64,000 bases of DNA, from positions 3,655-67,654 of the forward strand of contig JACPHR010000010.1 of assembly GCA_016188455.1 (NCBI GenBank), given 5' to 3'. The position numbers were made by a program, and so were the translations under genes. Source of the DNA: Candidatus Tayloriibacteriota bacterium. GTDB taxonomy: Bacteria; Patescibacteriota; Minisyncoccia; Phycocordibacterales; SIBU01. Below are positions 3,347-62,161 of the stretch, one piece after another (position 1 is the stretch's first letter; every line of letters begins with the position of its first letter). Under the pieces are notes generated by a model. The model was not told where the DNA came from, searched no databases, and worked only from the letters and a program-made list of their open reading frames with translations.

Positions 3347-3583
3347 ATGCGTAGCGTAACAATTTACAGCACCCCCACCTGCCACTTCTGCCACCTGGCC
3401 AAGGATTTTTTCAAGCTAAACAACATCGCTTACACCGATAAAAACGCCGCGGCCGACCCGGTGGCCCGCAAAGAAGCCATCACCAAATCTGGCCAGATGG
3501 GCGTGCCGGTCATTGATATTGACGGCGCTATTGTGGTCGGTTTTGACGAGCCGAAATTACGCAAGCTTTTGGAAATAAATTAG
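3347..3583 (+). CDS. glutaredoxin-like (Grx/NrdH family) protein
   Basis: VTIYSTPTCHFC CxxC thioredoxin-fold motif. The track ORF begins at TTG 3305; in-frame ATGs lie at 3320 and 3347; a tataat box sits at 3310-3315. Confidence 0.7.
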   Translation: MRSVTIYSTPTCHFCHLAKDFFKLNNIAYTDKNAAADPVARKEAITKSGQMGVPVIDIDGAIVVGFDEPKLRKLLEIN

Positions 3584-3685: not shown

Positions 3686-6600
3686 CTACCGCGCTGTGGA
3701 GCTATTCAGTTGCTTCTGAAGTTCTTGGACGCGCTTGATGGCCTCATCAATTTGTTTCTCCAAAGCTTCCCGCGCCGCTTTTGAAGCGCTGGAAGCTCCT
3801 GCTGAAGTTTCCACCGTGGCGGCGGGCGCACTGGCCGCGCTCATCGCTTTGAGTTGAGCCCGGGTTTTAGGACCAACATCACCATAGCCGCTGTCTCCCG
3901 GATTGGCAATACCATATTTCACTTGGAATCGGCCGACTGCCCTTTGAGTGGCCGGGCCGAAGAAGCCGGTGGCATCGCCTTCAGGGTACAGCTCTTTGTC
4001 TGCCGAAAGGAATATCTGCAAAGCTTTCACGTCATCCCCTCTGGCGCCGCGAACGAGGCCCCGAGTGATGTTCGGCGCGCCGGCGGAGACTCCGGACGAT
4101 GGTGTCGGAGCGGCAGGAGGGGCCGCCGGAACTTGAGCGTTTTCCTTGAAGACTTCATTAATCTTTGCCCGAGTGGCCGGACCGAGTTTGCCCGCGCCAG
4201 CCGACTTTTCACTCTTGATTACTCCGTGCTTTAGCTGAAAGGCCTTAAGCGCTTTTTCAGTCAGAGGACCAAAGAAACCGGTTTGTTCAACGGCTATGAG
4301 AGCCTGCAGACGTTTGACATCCTCCCCTCGGGCTCCACGGGTCAGGTCTTTATTGAAGACCGGGGAAACCAAGCGGGCGGTCGCGGATGCTTGCGCTACT
4401 GACGCCGCCGGTACGGTAACGGCCGCCGGCGCCGGGGTTGAGGTTTTAAACTTCTTGTCAAGCTCCGCTATCTTGGCCGCCGCGCCGACTTCGTCAAGAT
4501 AGACTACCGTACCGTCAGGATAAATCTTTTGGGCGCGTGGGGCAGGAGCGCCAGTACCGCCGCCTCCGCCGCCGCCAGGGGCGGCATTGCCGGCGTTGGC
4601 CGACACCGTGGCGCTCACCGCGCTTGAGGCGGCTGATTCTGAGGCGCCGCTAGATTTGTAAGCCGAAATCTTGTAGTAGTAGGTGGTGCCGGCCGTTACT
4701 GACGTATTGGAATAACTAAGAGTGCTGCCTCCCGATATGTTGGCGAGAAGGGGGAACGAGCCGGTAGAGCTGGTGTCTCTGTAGATGTAGTAACCCTCGG
4801 CGGTGGAAACCGTTCCCCATGAAAGCGCAATGGGGCTGCCGTCCGTCACTCCGGCAGTGGCCGTGAGGCCGCCGGGCGTATCGGGCGGCGAAACGCCGAC
4901 TTGAGACGACAGAGCGTAGGCCGAGAAGTGGGTGCCTTGGGCGGCAAAGGTTACGGATGAGACATTGGAAAGGTCGGCGGAGGGCGACGCCACGGCGGCA
5001 CCGGTGGAATCTTTATAGGTCGGCACGGTAGAAAGCGTTTCCCAGTCTCCCTTGTCGGCGCTGTACGACATTACGGTAAGCTTGTTGACTGCGGTTGTGC
5101 TGGTAATGCTGGAAGAAGTAAGTTCCGCCTTGGTGTAGGTCAATTCAATATCGGCTTTCTTGCCGGTCTGGAGGTTCGTCACCTGACTGCCGCCCGAGAA
5201 GGCGCTGATATCCTTGGCTTTGCTCCCGATAATGTTGACACTGGAGGTGTTCGGATAGTTGCTGGTTTCCTTGGCCGTGATATAAGAGCTGTTGCCTGAA
5301 GCGCCCAAGGCGTTGGCGTCAAGATTGACCTTGGTGTTGACGGAAGCGTCAGAAAACGAACCGGCAGAAGTGTCCGTGAAAGTATTTGAGGTAGCAAGCT
5401 TGGACGAAAGCGAGGATGCCGTCGTGAGCGCCACATTGATGCCGGTTTGGGAACTGTTAACGGTAACCGGATTGGAAGCGGAAGCTCCTTCCGCATAGCC
5501 GTCGGCGGCGGCAAAGACTCTCCAGTTGCCCGGAGTGACGTTTAAGGTATAGGCGCCGCTAGTATCAGTTTGGGTAATCGCCTGGCCGCCGCCGATTTTA
5601 CCGGCGCGGACGAAGGAATTGGCCGCCGCCACGCCTCCGGCCGTGACCGTGCCGGAAATCGTAAGCGAGGATGCCGTCATAATGAAGTTTTGAGTGGTGG
5701 TGCCTGAAACCGTCACCGTTACGGGTGAAGCGACGTATTGGGGTTTGGATACCAGTACTTGGTAGGTGCCGTTCACGGCCTTAATGCTGTAACCGCCGGT
5801 GGAAGTGGCCTGGGCGCCGAACTGCACGCCATTCGTCTGGTCAACGAACTGAATCCAAGCGCCGTCAAGTTCGTTGCCGGCCGTGGCCGCTGTTTTGTAG
5901 ACCGTGCCCGCAATGTTGCTCAAGGCCGCGCCGGTGGACGAAGTGTTGACGGTAATTTTGACCGCTTCGGTGGCATGGCTAACGGAGAGATTGCCGCTTG
6001 ATACGGTGGTCTGCGCGCCGTCTGAGGCCACGGAAATGTTTGCCGGCGGAATACCTTGAATGTAGGCCCGGATGGAAGGCGTGGTGCTTGAAGCGATTAA
6101 GAGCGAGGTGGTTGAAGCGTTGGTAATTTCAATGTGGTTGCCCAAGCCGGTGGTTTTGTCAAAGAGGTCAACGAAGGCCTTGGAGACGACCAGCGGGTTG
6201 CCGTCTGAGTCCTTGATGGTGAAGTTGACGGTGCTCCGAACCGGTACGCGGATGTACTGATTGGTTGATGAAGCGCTGAGGTCAATGGTACCGATAGCCG
6301 TACCCGCGCTGTTATACGCCGCAAGCCTGCCGTAGGACGGCGAGAAGATGTCTCTGATGGTATAGCCACTGGCGGATGGCACGCGGATGGAGAAGGCTCC
6401 GTCAGCGCCTGAAACGCCTTCGTTGACGCTGGTGCTGTTGGAAAGACGGATGACGGCGCCGACAATGGCCTCGGTGGTGGTGGCGTACTTGTTGTTGTCA
6501 TCCAAATCCTCGTAGATATTGCCAGAGTAAATACTGAAACTTTGACTGGAGGAGGGGGCGAAGTTGATACTGGACTGGCTCGCGCCGGCAATGGTGACAG

Positions 6601-16412: not shown

Positions 16413-18683
16413 ATGAAATTATTGATCGTTGAATCGCCGGCGAAGGCGAAAACCATTTCAAAATATCTGGACGGCCTGCCTGCGCCTGCCGGCGCGAAAG
16501 CAGGCGGGCAGGCGGGCCGGTACATCGTCAAGGCTTCCGTCGGCCATGTCCGCGACCTGCCAAAGAGCAATAAAAACGCCATTGACATTGAGGGCGGCTT
16601 TGTGCCCCATTACGAAATTTCCAAAGGCAAGGAAAAGGTGGTCTCTGAGATAGAGGCTTTGGCCAGGAAGGCGGACACCGTGCTCTTGGCCACCGACCCC
16701 GACCGCGAGGGCGAGGCCATTGCTTGGCACTTATCCGAGCTTATAAAGGATAAGCTCGGAGAATCACGAATCAAGAATCACGAATCAAGAAGACCGATAC
16801 AGAGGGTGGTGTACCATGAAATAACGAGGGAGGCCATAAAAGAGGCTTTGGAGCATCCGCGAGACATTGACGAAAACTTGCGGCGCGCTCAGGAGGCGCG
16901 GCGGGTTTTAGACCGTCTCGTCGGCTACGACCTCTCCGGCCTGATTTGGAAAAAAGTGCGCTACGGCTTGTCCGCCGGCCGGGTTCAGTCTCCGGCTCTG
17001 CGCATTTTGGTGGAACGGGAGCGGGAAATTCGCGCCTTTAAGCCGGAAAAATTTTTCGTCATCAGCGCGGAAGTGGAAAGCAAAACCGGCGGTCGGTTCA
17101 TGCTTTTCTGCGTGGCAGAACCGCGCGACAAAGGGCTGGTGGAAAAAATCCTGGCGGCGGGCCGGCGCGAAGATTGGGTCGTTAAAGAGATTGCCGAAAC
17201 CGAAGCCAAGCGAACGCCGAAGGCGCCTTTCATCACCTCCACTCTCCAGCAAACCGCGAGCTCGCGGCTGGGATTCGCCCCCTCGCGCACCATGGGCATC
17301 GCCCAAAAACTTTACGAAGCGGGACTGATTACCTACATGCGCACCGACAGCACCACTTTGTCCGCCCACGCCCTGGCCCAAATCGGCCCGGCCATTCTGA
17401 AAAAATTCGGCGCCGGCCTCCACCAAAACCGGGTCTTCGCCAAAAAAAGCAAGAACGCCCAGGAAGCCCACGAAGCCATCCGCCCGACCAATCTTTCTCT
17501 GGAATCCGCCGGCGCGGGAAACGAGGCCCGCAAGCTCTACCGTTTGATTTGGCAGAGGACAATCGCCAGCCAAATGATTGACGCCAAAATTTTACGAAGC
17601 AAGATTACTGTCAGGGTCGGCACGGGCCCCTCGCCTGCGCTCGGGGCAAGCGAAATTCCGGACTTTGCCGTGGGCGGCTCGCGGTTGCTTTCCCCCGGCT
17701 GGCTCTTGGCCGACCCCGAAGCGCGGGGCGAGGATGTTGAACTGCCGAAAGTTTCCTTGAACGAAAAACTAACGCTCCTTCAACTGAAAACGGAAGAAAA
17801 AGCGACGGAGCCGCCGCCGCGCTACAGCGAAGCGGGTCTGGTCAAAGAGCTTGAGAAGCGCGGCATTGGCAGGCCCTCAACCTACGCCTCCATCCTCAAA
17901 ACCATTGAAGACCGGGGCTACGTGACCAAAGAAAACAAAGCCTTGAAACCGACGGATACCGGCGAAGTGGTCAGCGGCTTTCTGGAAGACAATTTTCCGA
18001 CTTACATTAGCGACAATTTTACCGCGGAGATGGAAGACAAACTTGACGATATCGCCGTAGGAGCGCGTCAGTACGAAAAAACTCTTGAGGAATTTTATAA
18101 ACCCTTCCATAAGGAAGTAAAAGCCAAGGAAAAGGCGGAAAAAGCCACCAACCTTGGAGAAGGCCCGAAAGAATTTTCCTGTCCGGTCTGCGACGGGCCC
18201 ATGATTATAAAACTCGGCAGGAGTGGAAGATTTTTAAGCTGCGCCAAATTCCCCGATTGCTTGGGCGCCCGCGCCATTGACGGCAAGGAACTTGAAGGGC
18301 CGAAAGAAACCGGCGAACTCTGTCCGGAATGTAAAACCGGCAAACTGGTTGAGCGCGACGGCAAGTTTGGCCGCTTTATCGCCTGCTCCAATTATCCGAA
18401 ATGCAAATATGTCAAGAAAGACGAGGCGCTGGAAAAGCAAAACTCAACCGGTGTCCTCTGCCCCGTCTGCAAGGAAGGCTTCATGACCGAGCGCCGCGGC
18501 CGATTCGGCCTTTTTTACAGCTGTTCCAACTATCCCAAATGCAAAAACGCCATCAAAGCCAAACCGACCGGAGCGCTCTGCCGCCTCTGCGGCGCGCTGA
18601 TGATGGAAGGCACGAAAACCATCCCCGAAAGATGCAGTAATAAAACTTGTGCCAACCATAACCCCCACAAACTCGCGAAGTAA
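16413..18683 (+). CDS. topA: DNA topoisomerase I with C-terminal zinc-ribbon repeats
   Basis: MKLLIVESPAKAKTISKYL Toprim N-terminus. Four Cys4 zinc ribbons at the C-terminus. An in-frame ~15-aa insert (LPAPAGAKAGGQAGR) is encoded by a GC-rich palindromic element. Confidence 0.95.
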   Translation: MKLLIVESPAKAKTISKYLDGLPAPAGAKAGGQAGRYIVKASVGHVRDLPKSNKNAIDIEGGFVPHYEISKGKEKVVSEIEALARKADTVLLATDPDREGEAIAWHLSELIKDKLGESRIKNHESRRPIQRVVYHEITREAIKEALEHPRDIDENLRRAQEARRVLDRLVGYDLSGLIWKKVRYGLSAGRVQSPALRILVEREREIRAFKPEKFFVISAEVESKTGGRFMLFCVAEPRDKGLVEKILAAGRREDWVVKEIAETEAKRTPKAPFITSTLQQTASSRLGFAPSRTMGIAQKLYEAGLITYMRTDSTTLSAHALAQIGPAILKKFGAGLHQNRVFAKKSKNAQEAHEAIRPTNLSLESAGAGNEARKLYRLIWQRTIASQMIDAKILRSKITVRVGTGPSPALGASEIPDFAVGGSRLLSPGWLLADPEARGEDVELPKVSLNEKLTLLQLKTEEKATEPPPRYSEAGLVKELEKRGIGRPSTYASILKTIEDRGYVTKENKALKPTDTGEVVSGFLEDNFPTYISDNFTAEMEDKLDDIAVGARQYEKTLEEFYKPFHKEVKAKEKAEKATNLGEGPKEFSCPVCDGPMIIKLGRSGRFLSCAKFPDCLGARAIDGKELEGPKETGELCPECKTGKLVERDGKFGRFIACSNYPKCKYVKKDEALEKQNSTGVLCPVCKEGFMTERRGRFGLFYSCSNYPKCKNAIKAKPTGALCRLCGALMMEGTKTIPERCSNKTCANHNPHKLAK
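16473..16518 (+). mobile_element. in-frame GC-rich palindromic mini-element (family E-like) inside topA
   Basis: ggcctgcctgcgcctgcc..gcaggcgggcaggcgggcc, an inverted repeat of the CCTGCC/GGCAGG type also seen at 23614 and 57688. It encodes an insertion absent from canonical TopA N-termini. Confidence 0.45.
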
Positions 18684-20851: not shown

Positions 20852-21814
20852 CTAGATACTGAAATTTTTGAGCGAATAGAGTTCTTCTTCGTTTTCGTCG
20901 GCTTGAATCTCATCCTTGGTCCTATCGTCAACCGGCGCTTCGGCGGCGGCCGCGGCGGCAATCGGCGCCGCTAAGCCGGCCGGCTTTCGGGCGTTTATCG
21001 TCTCCACCAAAGCATGAAGGTCGTCATCGGAAAAAAACTCAATGGTAATCTTGCCGCCCACTTCTTTCCGCTCAATCCGCACCCTGGTGCCGAGCGACTC
21101 CTTGAGCTTGGCCTCAATGGCCAAAAGCTCCGGGTCAACGTCGGCATTGTGAGCGCGGACGCGGTCAAGGGCAATCTTGCGGGCGATGACCTCCGCCTCC
21201 CGAACGGTAATTTTCCTAAAAATAATTTCCTTAAAAAGCGTCGCCTGCTCCGACGGCCGGTCAATGAGCATCAAAAGCGGCCGGGTGTGGCCTTCGGAGA
21301 TTTTGCCTTCCGAAAGGGCGATGAGCATCTCCTCCGGCAGGGCCAAAATGCGGAGAGTGTTTGAAACATAGACGCGGCTTTTGCCAACCTTGGCCGCAAT
21401 CTCGGCGTGCGTAAATCTAAATTCCGTGCTTAGCCGATAAAAAGCCCTCGCCCTGTCAACGGGGTTCAAATCTTCGCGCTGTAAATTTTCAATAATGGCC
21501 AGTTCCAGTTTTTCTCGGTCACTTTGCTCTGTTGAACGGATAATCACCGGCACTTGTTCAAGACCGGCCAGTTTGGAGGCCCGGAGCCGCCGCTCGCCGG
21601 AAATCAGCTCGTACTCCACCAAAAGCCCGCCGTCCTCTTTCATTCGTTCATGGCGGGTAACGACCAGCGGCTGAAGCACGCCGTACATGCGGATGGAGTC
21701 GGCCAAATCCCGAAGCTTCACCTCGTCAAACTCGTGCCGCGGCTGGTACGGGTTCGGATGAATCTTGTCAACCTCAATCCAAAATATGGCGTCGTTAAAA
21801 AATTGCGAGGGCAT
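20852..21814 (-). CDS. parB: ParB/Spo0J-family partition protein
   Basis: ParB N-domain (IHPNPYQPRHEFDE..LADSIRMYGVLQPLVV) plus an HTH. Acidic C-terminal tail. Confidence 0.85.
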   Translation of the reverse strand: MPSQFFNDAIFWIEVDKIHPNPYQPRHEFDEVKLRDLADSIRMYGVLQPLVVTRHERMKEDGGLLVEYELISGERRLRASKLAGLEQVPVIIRSTEQSDREKLELAIIENLQREDLNPVDRARAFYRLSTEFRFTHAEIAAKVGKSRVYVSNTLRILALPEEMLIALSEGKISEGHTRPLLMLIDRPSEQATLFKEIIFRKITVREAEVIARKIALDRVRAHNADVDPELLAIEAKLKESLGTRVRIERKEVGGKITIEFFSDDDLHALVETINARKPAGLAAPIAAAAAAEAPVDDRTKDEIQADENEEELYSLKNFSI

Positions 21815-21940
21815 AAAAAAGTTGAAAGTTACAAGTTTGTAAAGTTATAAAGTAAAAAGAATCACACCCACATGGTAACATACAAGAACGGCATGTGAAA
21901 TTGATTTTTGTGTATAATTTGATTAGACTGATAATTTAAA

Positions 21941-22025
21941 GCCAGAGTGATGAAATTGGCAAACATACTCGACTCAAAATCGAGCGCCGAAAGGCTTGTG
22001 GGTTCAAATCCCACCTCTGGCACCA
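21941..22025 (+). tRNA. tRNA-Leu (anticodon CAA), long variable arm, CCA encoded
   Basis: Acceptor GCCAGAG/CTCTGGC. Anticodon loop cTCAAaa, with positions 34-36 = CAA. 13-nt variable arm. T-arm GTGGG-TTCAAAT-CCCAC. Confidence 0.8.
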
Positions 22026-22224
22026 ACGCTCGTCAAGGCGACCCACCCAACTCGCTGCAGACGCATCTGCGTCGAAGCGGGCGGGAGTCAGGTAGGCAAA
22101 ATCACGCGGGGCAATCTATGAGAGTTTGATCCCCTCCTCGCCCACCACTTGTGCTAGATTTTCTCCCGCGTCACCATCCCCACGTGACTACTGCTCAGTT
22201 CACAAGCAAGATTAATTCCCCGCT

Positions 22225-22258
22225 CTTATATTCTAATTCGCGCGAATTAGAATATAAG
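22225..22258. promoter_or_regulatory. 34-bp perfect palindrome (ArsR-type operator copy / bidirectional terminator) downstream of arsR-like gene 1
   Basis: cttatattctaattcgcgcgaattagaatataag. Confidence 0.5.
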
Positions 22259-22268
22259 AAAAACAATG

Positions 22269-22529
22269 CTATAAAACCTTCAGCACTGATTGAATGACTG
22301 CGGGAGATTTGCCATTCAGAAAATAGTAAACCTCAAGAGCCTGCTGGCGCTTGTCCAGAATATCAGCGCGAGAGAGTATATTGAGATGCTTCGAGGTCGA
22401 GGTGAATGACAGTTTAATCTCATCGGCGATTTCTCCCACTGTTGCCTCATGTTCCTTTTTCAGAAATGCAACAATGGCAAGACGTCTGCGATTCGCCATG
22501 GCTTTCAATACTCGCTCATATTCTTTCAT
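22269..22529 (-). CDS. ArsR/SmtB-family winged-HTH transcriptional repressor (paralog 1)
   Basis: 86 aa. RLAIVAFL..TVGEIADEIKLSFTSTSKHLNIL motif. 69 percent identical to the paralog at 23659. Confidence 0.7.
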   Translation of the reverse strand: MKEYERVLKAMANRRRLAIVAFLKKEHEATVGEIADEIKLSFTSTSKHLNILSRADILDKRQQALEVYYFLNGKSPAVIQSVLKVL

Positions 22530-22553
22530 GGTACTATATATTATACCGGTACT

Positions 22554-22575
22554 TTCTAATTCGCGCGAATTAGAA
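22554..22575. promoter_or_regulatory. 22-bp perfect palindromic operator in the divergent arsR-like-1 / miaA promoter region
   Basis: ttctaattcgcgcgaattagaa, about 25 bp upstream of the arsR-like start. A tatatat -10-like sequence lies between. Confidence 0.55.
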
Positions 22576-22602
22576 AATGATGAATTTGTGGATAAGCATC
22601 AC

Positions 22603-23589
22603 ATGGAGGCGAGTTTTGAGAAATACATGAGAAGAGCTGATAAAATTATCATTATTGCTGGGCCGACGGCGGTCGGAAAAAGCACGCTCGCCGTTAAGAT
22701 TGCAAAGAAATTCGGCGGAGAGATTGTTTCAGCCGATTCGCGGCAGGTCTATCGCGGATTAAACATCGGCACGGGAAAAATTACCAAAAAAGAAATGTGC
22801 GGAGTACCGCATCATTTGCTTGACGTGGCGAGCCCGCGTCGCAGATTCAGCGTGGTGGAGTATCAAAAGCTCGCCCGACAAAAAATCAAGGATGTTTTGT
22901 CTATGGGCAAGCTCCCCATCATCTGCGGCGGGGCCGGTTTCTACATTGAAGCCGTCGCGGACAATGTGGCCCTGCCCGACGCGCCGCCGAATGAAAAACT
23001 CCGCGCTCGGCTCCGAAAAGAAACTCCTGAAACTCTGCTGAACCTGCTGATGAAACTTGACCCGGCCCGAGCCGAAAACATTGACCGAAAAAATCCCCGC
23101 CGGCTGATTCGGGCGATTGAGGTCGCCCGGTCTCTCGGCTCCGTTCCTTCTCCTCTTCCTCTTCAACATTCATACGTTCCCTGCCTTGCCGGCAGGCAGG
23201 CTAGGAATGTAGGAATGTCAAAGAAAGAATTCAACGTACTCTGGATCGGGCTTACCCTGCCTCCGGCGGAACTGAAAAGGAAAATTGCTATTCGCTTATT
23301 CGCGCGAATTAGAAAAGGTATGATACAAGAAGCCCGGCGGCTTCACAAAAACGGCCTCTCGTGGAAACGAATGGAGGAGCTGGGTCTTGAGTATCGCCAC
23401 CTCGCGCGCTACCTGCGAAATAAAACGTCAAAACTGGAAATGACTGATAAATTGCAGACAGAAATCTGGCGCTACGCCAAGCGCCAGCTAACCTGGTTCA
23501 AACGCAACCGGCGAATCAGGTGGTTCCAGCCAAACCAAACGGAAGAAATTAAAACGTTGGTTAAAAACTTCCTGTCAAAATCAAAATGA
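22603..23589 (+). CDS. miaA: tRNA dimethylallyltransferase
   Basis: P-loop IIIIAGPTAVGKST and the SADSRQVYRGLNIGTGK motif. The track ORF has a spurious N-terminal extension running antisense to the arsR-like gene. Carries a lineage-specific insert around 23165-23300 that includes palindrome-derived sequence. Confidence 0.85.
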   Translation: MEASFEKYMRRADKIIIIAGPTAVGKSTLAVKIAKKFGGEIVSADSRQVYRGLNIGTGKITKKEMCGVPHHLLDVASPRRRFSVVEYQKLARQKIKDVLSMGKLPIICGGAGFYIEAVADNVALPDAPPNEKLRARLRKETPETLLNLLMKLDPARAENIDRKNPRRLIRAIEVARSLGSVPSPLPLQHSYVPCLAGRQARNVGMSKKEFNVLWIGLTLPPAELKRKIAIRLFARIRKGMIQEARRLHKNGLSWKRMEELGLEYRHLARYLRNKTSKLEMTDKLQTEIWRYAKRQLTWFKRNRRIRWFQPNQTEEIKTLVKNFLSKSK

Positions 23590-23613
23590 CATCCCGCACT
23601 ATTCGCTTATTCG

Positions 23614-23652
23614 CCCGCCTGCCAAAGCCTGAGCTTGGCGATGGCGGGCAGG
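23614..23652. mobile_element. family E mini-element (TIRs only, 39 bp) inserted at the centre of an ArsR-type operator palindrome
   Basis: cccgcctgcc-aaagcctgagcttggcgat-ggcgggcagg, flanked by ttattcg | cgcgaattag. Removing it restores aattcgcgcgaatt. Confidence 0.5.
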
Positions 23653-23658
23653 CGCGAA

Positions 23659-23919
23659 TTAGAGAACAGAAATAAGATATTTAATAACAGGCACTTGTAA
23701 GTTGGTGATTTTATAAAACATTTGAAGGCTGACTTGCTCTTTTTCAAGAATTTCTGCGGCACTTAGAATAAGCAAATGTTTAGAAGTTGATGTGAAAGAA
23801 AGCTTGATGTTCTCTGCAACTGCACCAACTGACGCGACTTTCTTTTTCTTGAGGAAAGCCAGAATCGCTAACCGTCTTTTGTTCGCCACTGCCTTCAATT
23901 GTCTTTCGAGTTTTATCAT
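23659..23919 (-). CDS. ArsR/SmtB-family winged-HTH transcriptional repressor (paralog 2)
   Basis: 86 aa. RLAILAFL..SVGAVAENIKLSFTSTSKHLLIL. Confidence 0.7.
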   Translation of the reverse strand: MIKLERQLKAVANKRRLAILAFLKKKKVASVGAVAENIKLSFTSTSKHLLILSAAEILEKEQVSLQMFYKITNLQVPVIKYLISVL

Positions 23920-23937
23920 CCCTATTTTTTATTTATC

Positions 23938-23969
23938 TTATTGTCTAATTCGCGCGAATTAGACAATAA
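23938..23969. promoter_or_regulatory. 32-bp perfect palindromic operator upstream of arsR-like gene 2
   Basis: ttattgtctaattcgcgcgaattagacaataa, about 20 bp upstream of the start. Confidence 0.55.
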
Positions 23970-23992
23970 ATTAATTATTTTGAGGCATTTTC

Positions 23993-24154
23993 GGCGGGAG
24001 CTGGAGGAATCGGTCACAACTCTCGTTCTCCCGTCGGAGAACTCGGTCGCGACCCCGCCTCGTTCTCGCTCGGAACTCGCGAGATACTCCGGCTTCCGCT
24101 TCCTCTCGCGACCCAAGCAGTTGGCTCGCTCAACTCCCCATTCGGCCGCACTCA
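23993..24154 (-). repeat. family B element (~140 bp) plus 21-nt duplicate of the tRNA-Trp 3-prime end
   Basis: ggcgggagctggaggaatcgg at 23993-24013 repeats 24155-24175. The intervening sequence is ~70 percent identical to 28317-28442. Confidence 0.55.
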
Positions 24155-24228
24155 TGGCGGGAGCTGGAGGAATCGGACCTCCGACCGACGTTTTGGAGAC
24201 GTCCATTATGCCACTTAACTAAGCTCCC
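24155..24228 (-). tRNA. tRNA-Trp (anticodon CCA), CCA encoded
   Basis: Acceptor GGGAGCT/AGCTCCC. Anticodon arm GACGT-cTCCAaa-ACGTC. Atypical T-loop TCCGATT. Confidence 0.75.
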
Positions 24229-24290
24229 GGTGCGAGCAATATAGCACAAAAGGCGCGGGTTGCCAAAAAATAACCTCGCCCGGAGAGGGA

Positions 24291-24449
24291 TTATTTTTTG
24301 GCTTCTTTGTGCGGTGTCCGCGCGCGACACCATTTGCAAAATTTCTTGAGCTCTATCTTGCGCTCTACCTTCTTCTTGTTCTTTTCAGACCAATAGTTGG
24401 TGCGCTGACACTGGGAACAATTGAGCTTTATAAGTCGTTCCTGGCTCAT
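24291..24449 (-). CDS. rpmG: 50S ribosomal protein L33
   Basis: 52 aa, MSQERLIKLNCSQCQRTNYWSEKNKKKVERKIELKKFCKWCRARTPHKEAKK. Two CxxC pairs form the zinc ribbon. Under 60 aa, so absent from the ORF track. Next to tRNA-Trp, as in many bacteria. Confidence 0.75.
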   Translation of the reverse strand: MSQERLIKLNCSQCQRTNYWSEKNKKKVERKIELKKFCKWCRARTPHKEAKK

Positions 24450-31650: not shown

Positions 31651-32925
31651 ATGTCAAACAAGCGAATTTATCTCGATTGCGCCGCCACAACTCCGCTTGA
31701 CCAGCGGGTTTTGAAAGTTATGCTGCCCTATTTCGGGAAAAAGTTCGGTAATCCAAGTTCGATTCACGCCGAAGGGGTAGATGCGAAGAAAGCGCTTGAA
31801 GCGGCGCGCAAGAGTGTCGGGGGAATTCTCCGCGCCCGAGCCGACGAAATGATTTTTACCTCCGGCGGCACCGAGTCAAACAACCTTGCCATCCATGGCG
31901 TTCTGAACGCCATCACGGATATACGCAGATTGGACGCAAACAAACGCGGATTGAATATCAGCGTGCATCAGCGTAGTCATCAGCGTGCATCCGCGGAAAA
32001 ATTGCATATGGTGACGACTAACATTGAACACTCGTCCGTGCTGGAGCCGATACGGGCGCTCGAGCGGCGCGGCGTGGCCGTAACCTACGTGCCGATTGAG
32101 CCAAACGGTATCGTGGACCCTAAAAAAATCGCCGCCGCTTTGCGTCCGGAAACAGTTTTGGTTTCGGTCGGCTACGCCAATAATGAAATCGGCACCATAC
32201 AACCGATTTCTAAAATTGCCCGCGAGATTCGCATTTTTAGAAATCGGCTGAAAGCACAAATCACAAATCCCAAATTCAAACTTTCAAATTTCCAAACCCC
32301 GATTTTCCATACGGATGCTTGCCAAGCTCCCTTGTATCTAGATTGCAACATGGACAAGCTCGGCGTTGACCTTTTGACGCTCGACGGCCACAAAATGTAC
32401 GGGCCCAAGGGGGTCGGCGCCCTCTACATAAGGCACGGCACCCCTATTGCGCCAATGCTTTTTGGCGGCGGCCAGGAAAGCAGTCTTCGTTCAACAACGG
32501 AAAATGTGGCGGCTATCGTCGGTTTCGCTCGGGCGCTTGAGATGGCCGCGTCAAAACGCGACAAAGAATCCGCGCGTCTCACGAAGCTCCGCGACTTCTG
32601 TCATTCCAACATTCTTGAGAATGTTGGAATGACAGAAGTGATAATTAATGGCGATATGAAAGAACGGCTGCCGAATAACCTAAACCTCTCCTTCCCGGGC
32701 ATTGATACCGAAATGCTTCTGCTGCGGCTTGACGCTTTGGGCATCGCCTGCTCCACAAAAAGTTCCTGTCTGCGAGATGAGCCGGGTTCCTATGTCGTCC
32801 TGGCCTTGGGCGGCGGTGAAGCTCGGGCAAAATCAACTCTTCGCTTCAGCTTCGGCCGCGAAACGACCAAAAAAGATATTGATTATCTAATTATCCAACT
32901 TGTCCGCGTTATACAGCAATCTTGA
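31651..32925 (+). CDS. cysteine desulfurase (class V aminotransferase, IscS/NifS-like) with two lineage-specific inserts
   Basis: LDCAATTPLD N-terminus and the PLP-lysine region GHKMYGPKGVGALYIR. Inserts at ~31915-31990 (with direct repeats) and ~32225-32290 (CA-rich). Confidence 0.85.
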   Translation: MSNKRIYLDCAATTPLDQRVLKVMLPYFGKKFGNPSSIHAEGVDAKKALEAARKSVGGILRARADEMIFTSGGTESNNLAIHGVLNAITDIRRLDANKRGLNISVHQRSHQRASAEKLHMVTTNIEHSSVLEPIRALERRGVAVTYVPIEPNGIVDPKKIAAALRPETVLVSVGYANNEIGTIQPISKIAREIRIFRNRLKAQITNPKFKLSNFQTPIFHTDACQAPLYLDCNMDKLGVDLLTLDGHKMYGPKGVGALYIRHGTPIAPMLFGGGQESSLRSTTENVAAIVGFARALEMAASKRDKESARLTKLRDFCHSNILENVGMTEVIINGDMKERLPNNLNLSFPGIDTEMLLLRLDALGIACSTKSSCLRDEPGSYVVLALGGGEARAKSTLRFSFGRETTKKDIDYLIIQLVRVIQQS

Positions 32926-43865: not shown

Positions 43866-43930
43866 TAAACGCCCACAGAATATCCACCGCTTGGGGTGGT
43901 AATTCTGTGGCTTGCGGATAATAACCCCTG
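43866..43930. repeat. family C structured repeat, copy 3
   Basis: cacagaatatccaccgc-ttgg-ggtggtaattctgtg followed by gcttgcggataataacccctgc. The stem sequence differs from copy 2 but pairing is preserved. Confidence 0.5.
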
Positions 43931-44154
43931 CCTGACGGCAGGCAGGCCGCACCAATCCTAGGGCGAGCGCGTGTCCCGAATAGGGACATCCCTTGTTGGG
44001 CGAAGCGAGAGCATGTATGCCCTCTGGTGCTGGGGTTATTTCCGGCCGTGAAATACCGGCCGCTCACGATCTCAAGACCTCTCCTTAACTATGACTATAA
44101 TGTTTACGGCTCACTTAAAGCTTTCCACACAGAATCTTTTCTCTATTTTGCCGT

Positions 44155-50974: not shown

Positions 50975-51090
50975 CAAAATGAAAATTGAAAAATCAAAAT
51001 GGAAAATGACAATGTAAAATCTTAAAATTTTTAATTTTGCATTGTCATTTTGATTTTTGATATTTACATTTTACATTATTATAGCCTAGT
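50975..51090. repeat. family D AT-rich repeat, empty-site copy
   Basis: ggaaaatgacaatgtaaaat ... ttttgcattgtcattttga tttttga|tatttacattttacatt. Shares 20-mer and 16-mer words with 57611-57808. Confidence 0.55.
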
Positions 51091-57591: not shown

Positions 57592-57810
57592 AAAAGTTAA
57601 AAAATTAAAGTGGAAAATGACAATGTAAAATTCAAAATTATCTGATTCGGCCAATTTTACACTTTAAACTGTCATTTTAGATTTTGACCCGCCTGCCTTC
57701 GCCTAAAGCTAACTCTCATTGCTCAACAAGTTGTAAAATTTTCTTTGCTTTTCATTAATCAAATAATCCGGCTCAGGCTTTGGCGGGCAGGTATTTACAT
57801 TTTACATTGA
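57592..57810. repeat. family D AT-rich repeat, filled-site copy (contains E3)
   Basis: tggaaaatgacaatgtaaaatt ... gtcattttagattttga | E3 | tatttacattttacatt. Confidence 0.55.
57688..57791. mobile_element. family E MITE-like element (104 bp) with 21-bp terminal inverted repeats, nested inside a family D repeat
   Basis: cccgcctgccttcgcctaaagc ... gctcaggctttggcgggcagg. The TIR 21-mer cccgcctgccaaagcctgagc also forms element E2 at 23614. The homologous site at 51058 is uninterrupted. Confidence 0.6.
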
Positions 57811-61986: not shown

Positions 61987-62161
61987 CACGACACCAATTT
62001 ACGAATGAGCGCGAATGACACGAATAGAGAAGTTGTGCGGAATTAGAAATTATGAATTAGTAATGAAGCCCAGCCCCAGAAATTTTGCCGCAAAATTTCT
62101 GGGCTGTTTTGTGCTTAAATCTATTCTTAAATTCTCAAGAATGCCAGAATAGAATTTGAAT

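Follow-up and report, generated by a model that had tools for sequence, protein, structure and literature searches.

IS1397 is an insertion sequence (IS) that inserts in PU loops. Patescibacteria have tiny genomes in which few mobile elements are recognised, and their regulation is almost uncharacterised. Here we describe a 39-nt GC-rich hairpin in Candidatus Tayloriibacteriota bacterium (GenBank assembly GCA_016188455.1, contig JACPHR010000010.1, positions 3,655 to 67,654), which splits a palindromic site at the stop codon of arsR2, one of two genes for 86-aa ArsR-like proteins; the analysed stretch of 64,000 nucleotides is called the window, and positions are counted from its first letter. 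We consider it likely that the hairpin is a small non-autonomous element that was inserted into the (CG)3 core of a conserved 28-bp putative ArsR-like binding site. Among the described systems, repetitive extragenic palindromes (REPs) are defined by an unpaired GTAG or CGTC tag at one end, lie mostly downstream of coding regions and probably act as RNA elements (PMC3733652), and REPs are in turn the insertion sites of ISPpu9/10, ISPa11, ISPsy8 and ISRm19/22 (PMC1525189).

Like a REP, the element is a GC-rich imperfect hairpin of 20-40 nt with an unpaired tetranucleotide tag, its family is mostly extragenic and sometimes intragenic, and copies combine into larger structures; moreover, a gene flanked by repeats resembles the REP-RAYT-REP arrangement (PMC3733652). 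However, the tag here is CCTG instead of GTAG or CGTC, a minimal unit has only 19 nt, and no RAYT or other transposase was found, with the limit that the open reading frames (ORFs) of the window were not screened for transposases. The product of the flanked gene is a winged-helix protein of 86 aa instead of a transposase, the flanking repeat is an AT-rich site instead of a GC hairpin, and the hairpins have a strong hot spot in another palindrome. The ISs that target REPs also land in the central part of a short chromosomal palindrome (PMC1525189), but they are full-length and encode a transposase, whereas the elements described here are non-coding and 19-104 nt long and their target is a presumed transcription-factor site.

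With miniature inverted-repeat transposable elements (MITEs) and palindrome-associated elements derived from IS200/IS605 (PATEs), the putatively non-autonomous element shares its hairpin-forming sequence and the presence of both empty and filled sites; classical MITEs, however, make target duplications, which this element does not, and no parent IS is known for it. A chemistry like that of IS200/IS605 or IS110 would fit the lack of a target-site duplication, a feature shared with IS200/IS605 elements. The latter, however, recognise a fixed tetra- or pentanucleotide and insert 3' of it, whereas no single target motif fits here. As with Rickettsia palindromic elements (RPEs), short palindromic elements lie in frame in genes, here in miaA and in an IscS-like gene, yet they differ in sequence, are much shorter and belong to a different phylum, and the 39-nt element itself is intergenic. 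The ArsR-like proteins belong to a family of small winged-helix dimeric regulators, and their putative ~28 bp dyad site has four half-sites and overlaps the regulator's own promoter, as do the ArsR/SmtB operators (12-2-12; HlyU, NolR, CzrA and SmtB). They differ in that the proteins are without metal- or thiol-sensing residues, that a second site lies systematically at the stop codon of the gene, and that sites also occur dispersed and in coding DNA.

A 39-nt hairpin splits the site at the arsR2 stop codon

The 20-bp palindrome TCTAATTCGCGCGAATTAGA occurs exactly at 22232-22251, 22555-22574 and 23944-23963, against 0 matches in 100 shuffles. It is the core of a 28-bp site of the form ATTC-N4-ATTC-GCGC-GAAT-N4-GAAT, and perfect palindromy reaches 36, 24 and 32 bp at the three copies, respectively. 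Genes and sites follow each other in the order tRNA-Leu, site, arsR1, site, miaA, split site, arsR2, site, tRNA-Trp, with miaA convergent with arsR2 and divergent from arsR1 (Table 1). The arsR2 stop codon (TAA, 23659-23661 on the minus strand) lies within the right half of the split site. On re-reading the sequence, we found the three intact palindromes and the 39-bp insert where the initial annotation had placed them.

The 39 bp are a discrete insertion that splits a pre-existing palindromic site. Their removal restores the contiguous site CTATTCGCTTATTCGCGCGAATTAGA, as had been proposed, but this site matches the perfect palindrome at 18 of 20 positions and is not identical to the perfect copies. 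Read on the minus strand, the element is CCTG CCCGCC ATC GCCAAGC TCAG GCTTTGGC A GGCGGG, in which an unpaired CCTG tag is followed by a CCCGCC/GGCGGG stem with a variable interior that forms a second stem. Alone, this imperfect palindrome of the 20-40 bp range folds at -23 kcal/mol. The annotation had also placed the insertion exactly at the centre of the palindrome. The insertion indeed lies inside the CG core, but the exact dyad is not demonstrable: the junction is ambiguous by one base each way (TTC^GCGCGAA, TTCG^CGCGAA or TTCGC^GCGAA, where ^ marks the insertion point), and the ends of the element family put it at TTCG^CGCGAA, one nucleotide away from the dyad. The junction at 23613/23653 can be explained with no target duplication, although a 2-bp GC duplication is possible there, and no target-site duplication of the MITE type was seen at either this junction or 57687/57792, the junction of a 104-nt relative of the element.

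We compared the locus with its relatives, as the annotation had suggested. Homologues of ArsR2 with 77-86% identity are encoded at the syntenic loci L001/L002, L003-L005 and L006 (L numbers denote loci in other genomes and contigs), where the gene order is alr - murL - mur ligase ... arsR - miaA - (sigma factor) - parB - relA/spoT - topA. At all of these loci the site over the arsR stop codon was uninterrupted, and the alignment with the window left a clean gap of 39 nt. The L003 site, TCTAATTCGCGCGAATAAGCGAACAG, is the window sequence without the 39 nt, save for one flanking base. MiaA identities among the four genomes were 61-67%, and the tree was star-like, with the window not an outgroup. 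Because the relatives are intact and the window is not an outgroup, one gain is more parsimonious than at least two losses. Judged from these alignments, the 39 bp are a lineage-specific insertion, and the family has both filled and empty sites, the latter being orthologous in L001, L003 and L006 and paralogous, for the 104-nt relative, in the window itself (Table 1).

Predicted effects on arsR2 and miaA

The insertion shifted the inner half-sites from 4 to 43 bp apart. It affects only the arsR2 stop-codon site in the convergent arsR2/miaA spacer, and the promoter sites at 23944 and 22555 are intact. The initial annotation had concluded that a repressor-binding site was split and that regulation could be abolished or retuned. 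A discrete insertion in a palindrome beside ArsR-like genes agrees with the first of these claims, but the split copy is the stop-codon site of arsR2 and not a promoter operator. Loss of arsR2 autoregulation is unlikely because the promoter site at 23944-23963 is intact. We expect at most that the auxiliary site at the 3' end of arsR2, which alone should be inactivated or weakened by the wider half-site spacing, has been lost or retuned, and that the 3' ends of both transcripts are possibly affected.

The half-sites and the insert together form one continuous stem-loop (-37.5 kcal/mol on the plus strand and -39.2 on the minus strand, z ~ -4). The short miaA/arsR2 spacer would become a long stem-loop of about -37 to -39 kcal/mol in both transcripts, and this structure could stabilise mRNA 3' ends or impede read-through. 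It is conceivable, though on balance improbable, that the hairpin has been retained as useful, be it as a bidirectional terminator, a roadblock or an mRNA-stabilising stem between miaA and arsR2, which is compatible with its arrival as a mobile element. Were the insert absent, the convergent spacer would measure only ~30 bp, the stem-loop formed by half-sites and insert is highly stable on either strand, and REPs likewise lie mostly downstream of coding regions and probably are RNA elements (PMC3733652); however, no U-tract follows the stem on either strand, and split sites elsewhere occur in every gene configuration, divergent included. The missing U-tract also led us to reject an intrinsic terminator as the primary reading.

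The palindrome accompanies ArsR-like genes across Patescibacteria

ArsR1 and ArsR2, which are 56% identical, have the ArsR-type winged helix-turn-helix (HTH_5/HTH_20). ArsR1 scores 66.3 against a cut-off of 55 for NCBIfam NF033788, and ArsR2 is 100% identical to an NCBI winged-helix regulator from a 'Candidatus Taylorbacteria' metagenome-assembled genome. The family profile matches the solved structures of HlyU, NolR and CzrA at E = 1e-14 to 1e-8, and the nearest solved relatives of the two proteins are HlyU, Lmo1102, NolR, CzrA, PagR and YgaV. The recognition helix KLSFTSTSKHL is common to both. Neither protein has the residues used for metal or ligand sensing (alpha3N Cys; alpha5 His/Asp/Glu): cysteine is absent and each has a single histidine, in KHL, and they are therefore not metal sensors. 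No catalytic domain was seen among the Pfam and NCBIfam profile matches of the 86-aa protein.

With the family profile we identified 393 relatives among the GTDB species genomes and counted sites at the best 80 of them, whose labels are nearly all Patescibacteria lineages. The site consensus over the 80 loci was TCTCTAATTCGCGCGAATAGGCGAATAG, which has the same four half-sites around GCGC as the window sites. A site lay up to 140 nt upstream of the 86-aa ArsR-like gene in 77 of the 80 loci and at its stop codon or up to 100 nt after it in 70, and 68 loci had both. At many loci the upstream site stands just upstream of a TATAAT; in the window, the 22555-22574 site is 9 nt upstream of the arsR1 TATAAT, and the position of the arsR2 upstream site is kept in relatives. 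Zones within 120 nt of an ArsR-like gene made up 8% of the searched sequence and held 167 of the 218 intact sites, an enrichment of about 10-fold.

Protein and site also appeared to change together. The recognition helix is nearly invariant in the family (SF[KT][AS]TSKHL), and the core GTAC, as opposed to GCGC, was found at 8 of 17 loci with an S-type helix versus 1 of 62 with an A-type helix (Fisher p = 7e-6, without phylogenetic correction; GCGC cores are found with S-type helices too). Sites are nearly base-for-base conserved between genomes whose MiaA proteins are only ~65% identical. Even the site inside miaA, which encodes IRLFARIRK and whose 20-bp core (23294-23313) differs from TCTAATTCGCGCGAATTAGA by 2 mismatches, is conserved at the nucleotide level in L003 and L006. 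By this comparison, site conservation is far above the neutral level at a MiaA identity of 61-67%.

These data show a dyad-symmetric site over the regulator's own promoter that is conserved together with the regulator. It is most probable that the 86-aa ArsR/SmtB-type proteins bind the palindrome that flanks their genes, and the distribution of the palindrome in the 80 genomes supports the operator reading, short of proof. Autoregulation is putative and is proposed because the site lies over promoters. The locus thereby yields a candidate regulator-site pair, in which a 28-bp site that is sharply defined is linked to the widespread ArsR-like family; our literature searches found neither the site nor the regulator family nor the hairpins described for Patescibacteria. 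As a caveat, sites also lie away from arsR genes, at about 1 per 17 kb in the sampled loci. Because of these copies and the one inside miaA, operator function may not be the sole role of the palindrome.

Such copies leave room for a different view, in which the palindrome is a selfish or structural repeat of the REP or RPE kind, the site-arsR-site unit is a mobile cassette like REP-RAYT-REP, and the 39-mer is merely nested in it with no regulatory effect. Palindromes do flank both arsR genes on both sides, as at 68 of 80 homologues, and sites are dispersed in intergenic DNA and in miaA. Between tRNA-Leu and the miaA start, where the window has the site-arsR1-site cassette (22224-22576), neither L001 (7225-7431) nor L003 carries it, and L003 has a sigma-70 gene in its place; from this comparison, the cassette is variably present. 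Furthermore, a sister palindrome family with ATTC-N4-ATTC architecture lies in frame in miaA and in the IscS-like gene, and the outer arms of the site are variable yet perfectly palindromic. However, the 86-aa winged-helix protein has no catalytic domain, and all five family-1 sites of the window fall within 1.8 kb around the two arsR genes, with none in the other 62 kb. The enrichment beside genes, the placement over promoters, the covariation of helix residue and site core, and a conservation far beyond neutral are also at odds with a purely selfish repeat, which we regard as unlikely.

Two further observations concern the ArsR-like genes of other genomes. A second ArsR-like paralogue in L007 (1017-1283) has, on both flanks, the non-palindromic motif TCT[T/A]ATTCGCTACAATAGG[A/G]GGATA in place of the GCGC-core palindrome, which may reflect a diverged specificity. 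Some database gene calls (P0002, P0004, P0021 and P0023) run the ArsR-like ORF through the palindrome and add an SNSRE peptide at the N- or C-terminus; this extension is an annotation artefact of a site that overlaps the gene ends.

Hairpins recur in the core of the palindrome

The genome loci were scanned, without bias towards the hairpin family, for half-sites separated by GC-rich DNA. Split sites came up in the window and in L013 (two), L024, L073 and L079; by motif search we further identified one in L034, which brings the other genome loci to 6 places in 5 loci, and a degenerate one in L058. About 3-4% of the sites in the genome loci are split. In every one of these split sites, the insert opens with CCTGCC(C/T)GCC right after the central CG run. 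The split site in L024 is the promoter-side one, and in L073 and L034 modules on both strands flank CGCGCG. The family architecture is an unpaired CCTG, CCCGCC, an interior and GG(C/A)GGG, with a total length from 19 to at least 62 nt.

A metagenome scan with the junction ATTCGCGCG+CCTGCCCGCC as query returned at least 121 matches. Among the matches listed, to which the metagenome results below also refer, about 70 were true split sites, 62 of them distinct, in AT-rich Patescibacteria-like contigs, and the remaining ones were chance matches in high-GC genomes. The commonest form is 19 nt long (e.g. CCTGCCCGCCTCTGGCGGG), and the lengths fall into classes of 19-20, 28-31, 38-42 and 50-62 nt, the 39-mer of the window belonging to the third. 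Copies can be nested: in L129 and L160 the apical loop of one copy contains another, complete copy, and in L165, L202 and L203 the loop is occupied by a CCTGCCTGCC..GGCAGG hairpin. The insertion point is CGCGCG^AAT in most genomes, while in the window the element stands one CG repeat earlier, at CGCG^CGAAT.

Taken together, the inserts at this palindrome apparently represent a recurrent, widespread and undescribed class of mini hairpins with a hot spot in its CG core. Such GC-rich hairpin mini-elements repeatedly land in the site core and in one another, and the family is apparently new; its 19-nt form would rank among the smallest insertion units known to us. We propose that the target is the (CG)3 core of the ATTC-N4-ATTC-GCGC-GAAT-N4-GAAT dyad site, and that the element is mobilised in trans by a putative enzyme that would prefer palindrome centres and hairpin apices. 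The target may be exposed as a hairpin in single-stranded DNA or distorted by the bound regulator. This site preference offers a route to the insertion mechanism, and it illustrates how selfish DNA can rewire or disable transcription-factor sites.

Several candidates for the origin of the inserts were rejected. An autonomous parent element was sought as a long insert bounded by the family termini at this position, and none was among the metagenome matches listed. With regard to a phage origin, the intact site and the junction motif were absent from viral contigs, the sole match being a chance one in a contig of 62% GC. Integration of the att type by a tyrosine recombinase was dismissed, as the CGCGCG core is single and not doubled at both junctions.

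In L013, which is on the same contig as L180, a 5-kb stretch carries Fic, PRiA4_ORF3 and Pif1 helicase together with an ArsR-like gene and has three intact and two split sites (positions 900-1000, 3540-3570, 3954-3983 and 4268-4316). Both of its split sites carry an identical module of 18-19 nt, though the arms of the two sites differ.

A number of points weigh against the insertion of a mobile hairpin into an ArsR-like binding site. The 39-mer has no second copy in the 64-kb window at up to 3 mismatches, and there is no target common to all copies, which stand at CGCGCG^AAT (common), at CGCG^CGAAT (window), at TTTGA^TATTT (the 104-nt copy, which is not at a hairpin apex) and in hairpin loops (nested copies). 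The metagenome split sites lie mostly away from arsR-like genes, with 1 of 59 within 150 nt, and because the query of that scan came from the family itself, the matches show that the family recurs but not how exclusive its use of the target is. No long element stood at this position among the 121 metagenome matches listed, and neither a transposase nor an autonomous copy was found, the window ORFs not having been screened for transposases. In addition, the outer arms vary among copies yet are perfectly symmetric over 32-36 bp. Symmetry of this length exceeds the usual need of a protein site, which hints at selection on, or a mechanism involving, a hairpin or cruciform.

We also considered a broader scheme of phylum-wide nested palindromic mini-elements, in which a tagged hairpin of at least 19 nt (CCTG-CCCGCC-loop-GGCGGG) inserts specifically into the CG core of the palindrome bound by a dedicated 86-aa protein, whose gene is bracketed by that palindrome in a REP-RAYT-like layout. 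In this scheme the protein would be more than a repressor and would help to target, or act as a partner in, the insertion of hairpins or the movement of cassettes, and in-frame units would remodel essential genes (miaA, IscS-like and topA). We regard this scheme as speculative and rather unlikely.

Another explanation does without transposition: the GC-rich centre would be a 'long allele' spread by gene conversion, or would have expanded locally at a fragile centre by hairpin nicking or template switching. Without its insert, the split site (23598-23613 plus 23653-23662) equals the miaA-internal copy at 23288-23313 over 26 nt, including 8 nt past the palindrome, at a distance of 310 bp, which suggests recent homogenisation between the two by gene conversion; in L003 and L006 the stop-codon site and the miaA-internal site differ from each other. 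Neither a target duplication nor, within the limit given above, a transposase was found, and the insert length classes are built of repeated sub-units. However, the module CCTG-CCCGCC...GG(C/A)GGG recurs in sites with different arms and in unrelated genomes, and the 104-nt relative with the same termini sits in an unrelated AT-rich repeat. Local templating is at odds with an insert whose sequence has no relation to its flanks, and arms of 12-14 bp are very short for homologous conversion. We therefore find this explanation quite improbable. It is very unlikely that the split form is ancestral at this locus and that a precise deletion between the CG repeats on either side removed the hairpin in the relatives. 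CG/CG flanks in a (CG)3 core and a strong hairpin would favour such slippage, but all three groups of relatives are intact, the window is not an outgroup by MiaA identity, only ~3-4% of the sites in genome loci are split, and the interior of the 39-mer is unique.

Related hairpins and other features of the window

The initial annotation had assigned the insert to a 'Family E' of CCTGCC...GGCAGG hairpins. This family is real, with 5 pattern matches at 4 loci against 0.12 expected, and it is heterogeneous; in the window, the CCTGCCCGCC type is represented by 3 hairpins, and 2 others are related (Table 1). The 104-nt relative has 14 nt, GCCAAAGCCTGAGC, in common with the 39-mer, and imperfect terminal inverted repeats of the kind known from MITEs, CCCGCCTGCC...GGCGGGCAGG, are present in both. 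Its interior is AT-rich (~60 nt) and sits apically in a hairpin that resembles the 39-mer. When the 104 nt are removed, the flanks align over the junction with another copy of the AT-rich hairpin repeat at 50985-51084 and form a filled/empty pair. Since the 104-nt copy lies off the apex, strict targeting of hairpin apices was rejected and kept only as a preference.

Table 1. Positions of genes, palindromic sites and hairpins in the window (^, insertion point)
Feature	Position	Strand	Remarks
39-nt GC-rich hairpin mini-element CCCGCCTGCCAAAGCCTGAGCTTGGCGATGGCGGGCAGG	23614-23652	-	unique 39-mer, absent from orthologous sites
Left half of split site ATTCGCTTATTCG	23601-23613
Right half of split site CGCGAATTAGAGAAC	23653-23667		contains the arsR2 stop codon
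Intact site downstream of arsR1	22224-22259		36-bp perfect palindrome
Intact site in the divergent arsR1/miaA promoter region	22553-22576		arsR1 TATAAT at 22545-22540 (- strand)
Intact site upstream of arsR2	23938-23969		32-bp perfect palindrome, 20-mer at 23944-23963
Full 28-bp site in the miaA coding sequence	23290-23317		ATTC GCTT ATTC GCGC GAAT TAGA AAAG, encodes IRLFARIRK
Second split palindrome in miaA	23168-23216		family-2 palindrome ATTC-N4-RTTC ... GAAT-N4-GAAT (CATTC-N4-GTTC ... GAAT-N4-GAATG), central CCTGCCTTGCCGGCAGGCAGG hairpin
104-nt relative of the 39-mer	57688-57791	-	same termini CCCGCCTGCC...GGCGGGCAGG; in an AT-rich repeat, no target duplication
Empty-site copy of the AT-rich repeat	51040-51077		TTTTGA^TATTTACATTTTACAT
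Related GC hairpin containing CCTGCCCGCC (GGCCTGCCTGCGCCTGCCGGCGCGAAAGCAGGCGGGCAGGCGGGCCGG)	16475-16520		near the N-terminus of a topoisomerase I-like (topA-like) ORF (LDGLPAPAGAKAGGQAGRYIVKASVGHVRDLP)
Related intergenic hairpin CCTGCCTGACGGCAGGCAGG	43927-43946
tRNA-Leu	21941-22025	+
arsR1	22269-22529	-	86-aa ArsR-like paralogue; Pfam HTH_20 and HTH_5 above cut-off
miaA (tRNA isopentenyltransferase)	22603-23589	+	Pfam IPPT E = 9e-64; aligned with orthologues
arsR2	23659-23919	-	86-aa ArsR/SmtB-type winged-helix protein; Pfam HTH_20/HTH_5 matches under curated cut-offs
tRNA-Trp	24155-24228	-

A second split palindrome, of family 2, lies within miaA. This composite is an in-frame insertion of ~51 nt with flanking bases (HSYVPCLAGRQARNVGM), which is absent from three MiaA orthologues, and intact family-2 copies occur at 32603-32630 and 62123-62150. 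Because the 39-mer and the miaA composite both sit there, GC hairpins repeatedly end up in the centres of ATTC/GAAT-type palindromes. The topA-like hairpin is probably another in-frame insertion. In-frame copies in housekeeping genes matter for the annotation and protein models of these genomes.

Two other palindromes were noted elsewhere in the window. At 32594-32639, within the IscS/NifS-like ORF 31651-32925, a 46-bp family-2 palindrome has 22-nt arms that are 100% complementary, with 2 nt between them. Its centre is CATTCCAACATTCTTGAGAATGTTGGAATG, it lies in frame in this cysteine-desulfurase-like gene and encodes CHSNILENVGM, and the motif recurs in many Patescibacteria contigs (e.g. L013 780-820, L124, L163 and L189). 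A third palindromic family, at 43693-43761 and 43870-43925, consists of CCCACAGAAT, a GC-rich hairpin and ATTCTGTGG, then CTTGCG(A/G)ATAATAA. It combines AT-rich arms with a different GC-rich hairpin in each copy, and it adjoins the CCTGCCTGACGGCAGGCAGG hairpin.

An Rfam search of 21800-24400 identified the two tRNAs only and no other RNA family. The last 21 nt of tRNA-Trp (CCGATTCCTCCAGCTCCCGCC, minus strand) are duplicated in the window at 23991-24176, and the two copies of the tRNA 3' end bracket ~144 nt of GC-rich non-coding DNA. L001, L003 and L006 lack this DNA, and their tRNA directly adjoins the upstream site of arsR2; the DNA and the duplication together have the appearance of a small remnant of integration at the 3' end of the tRNA.

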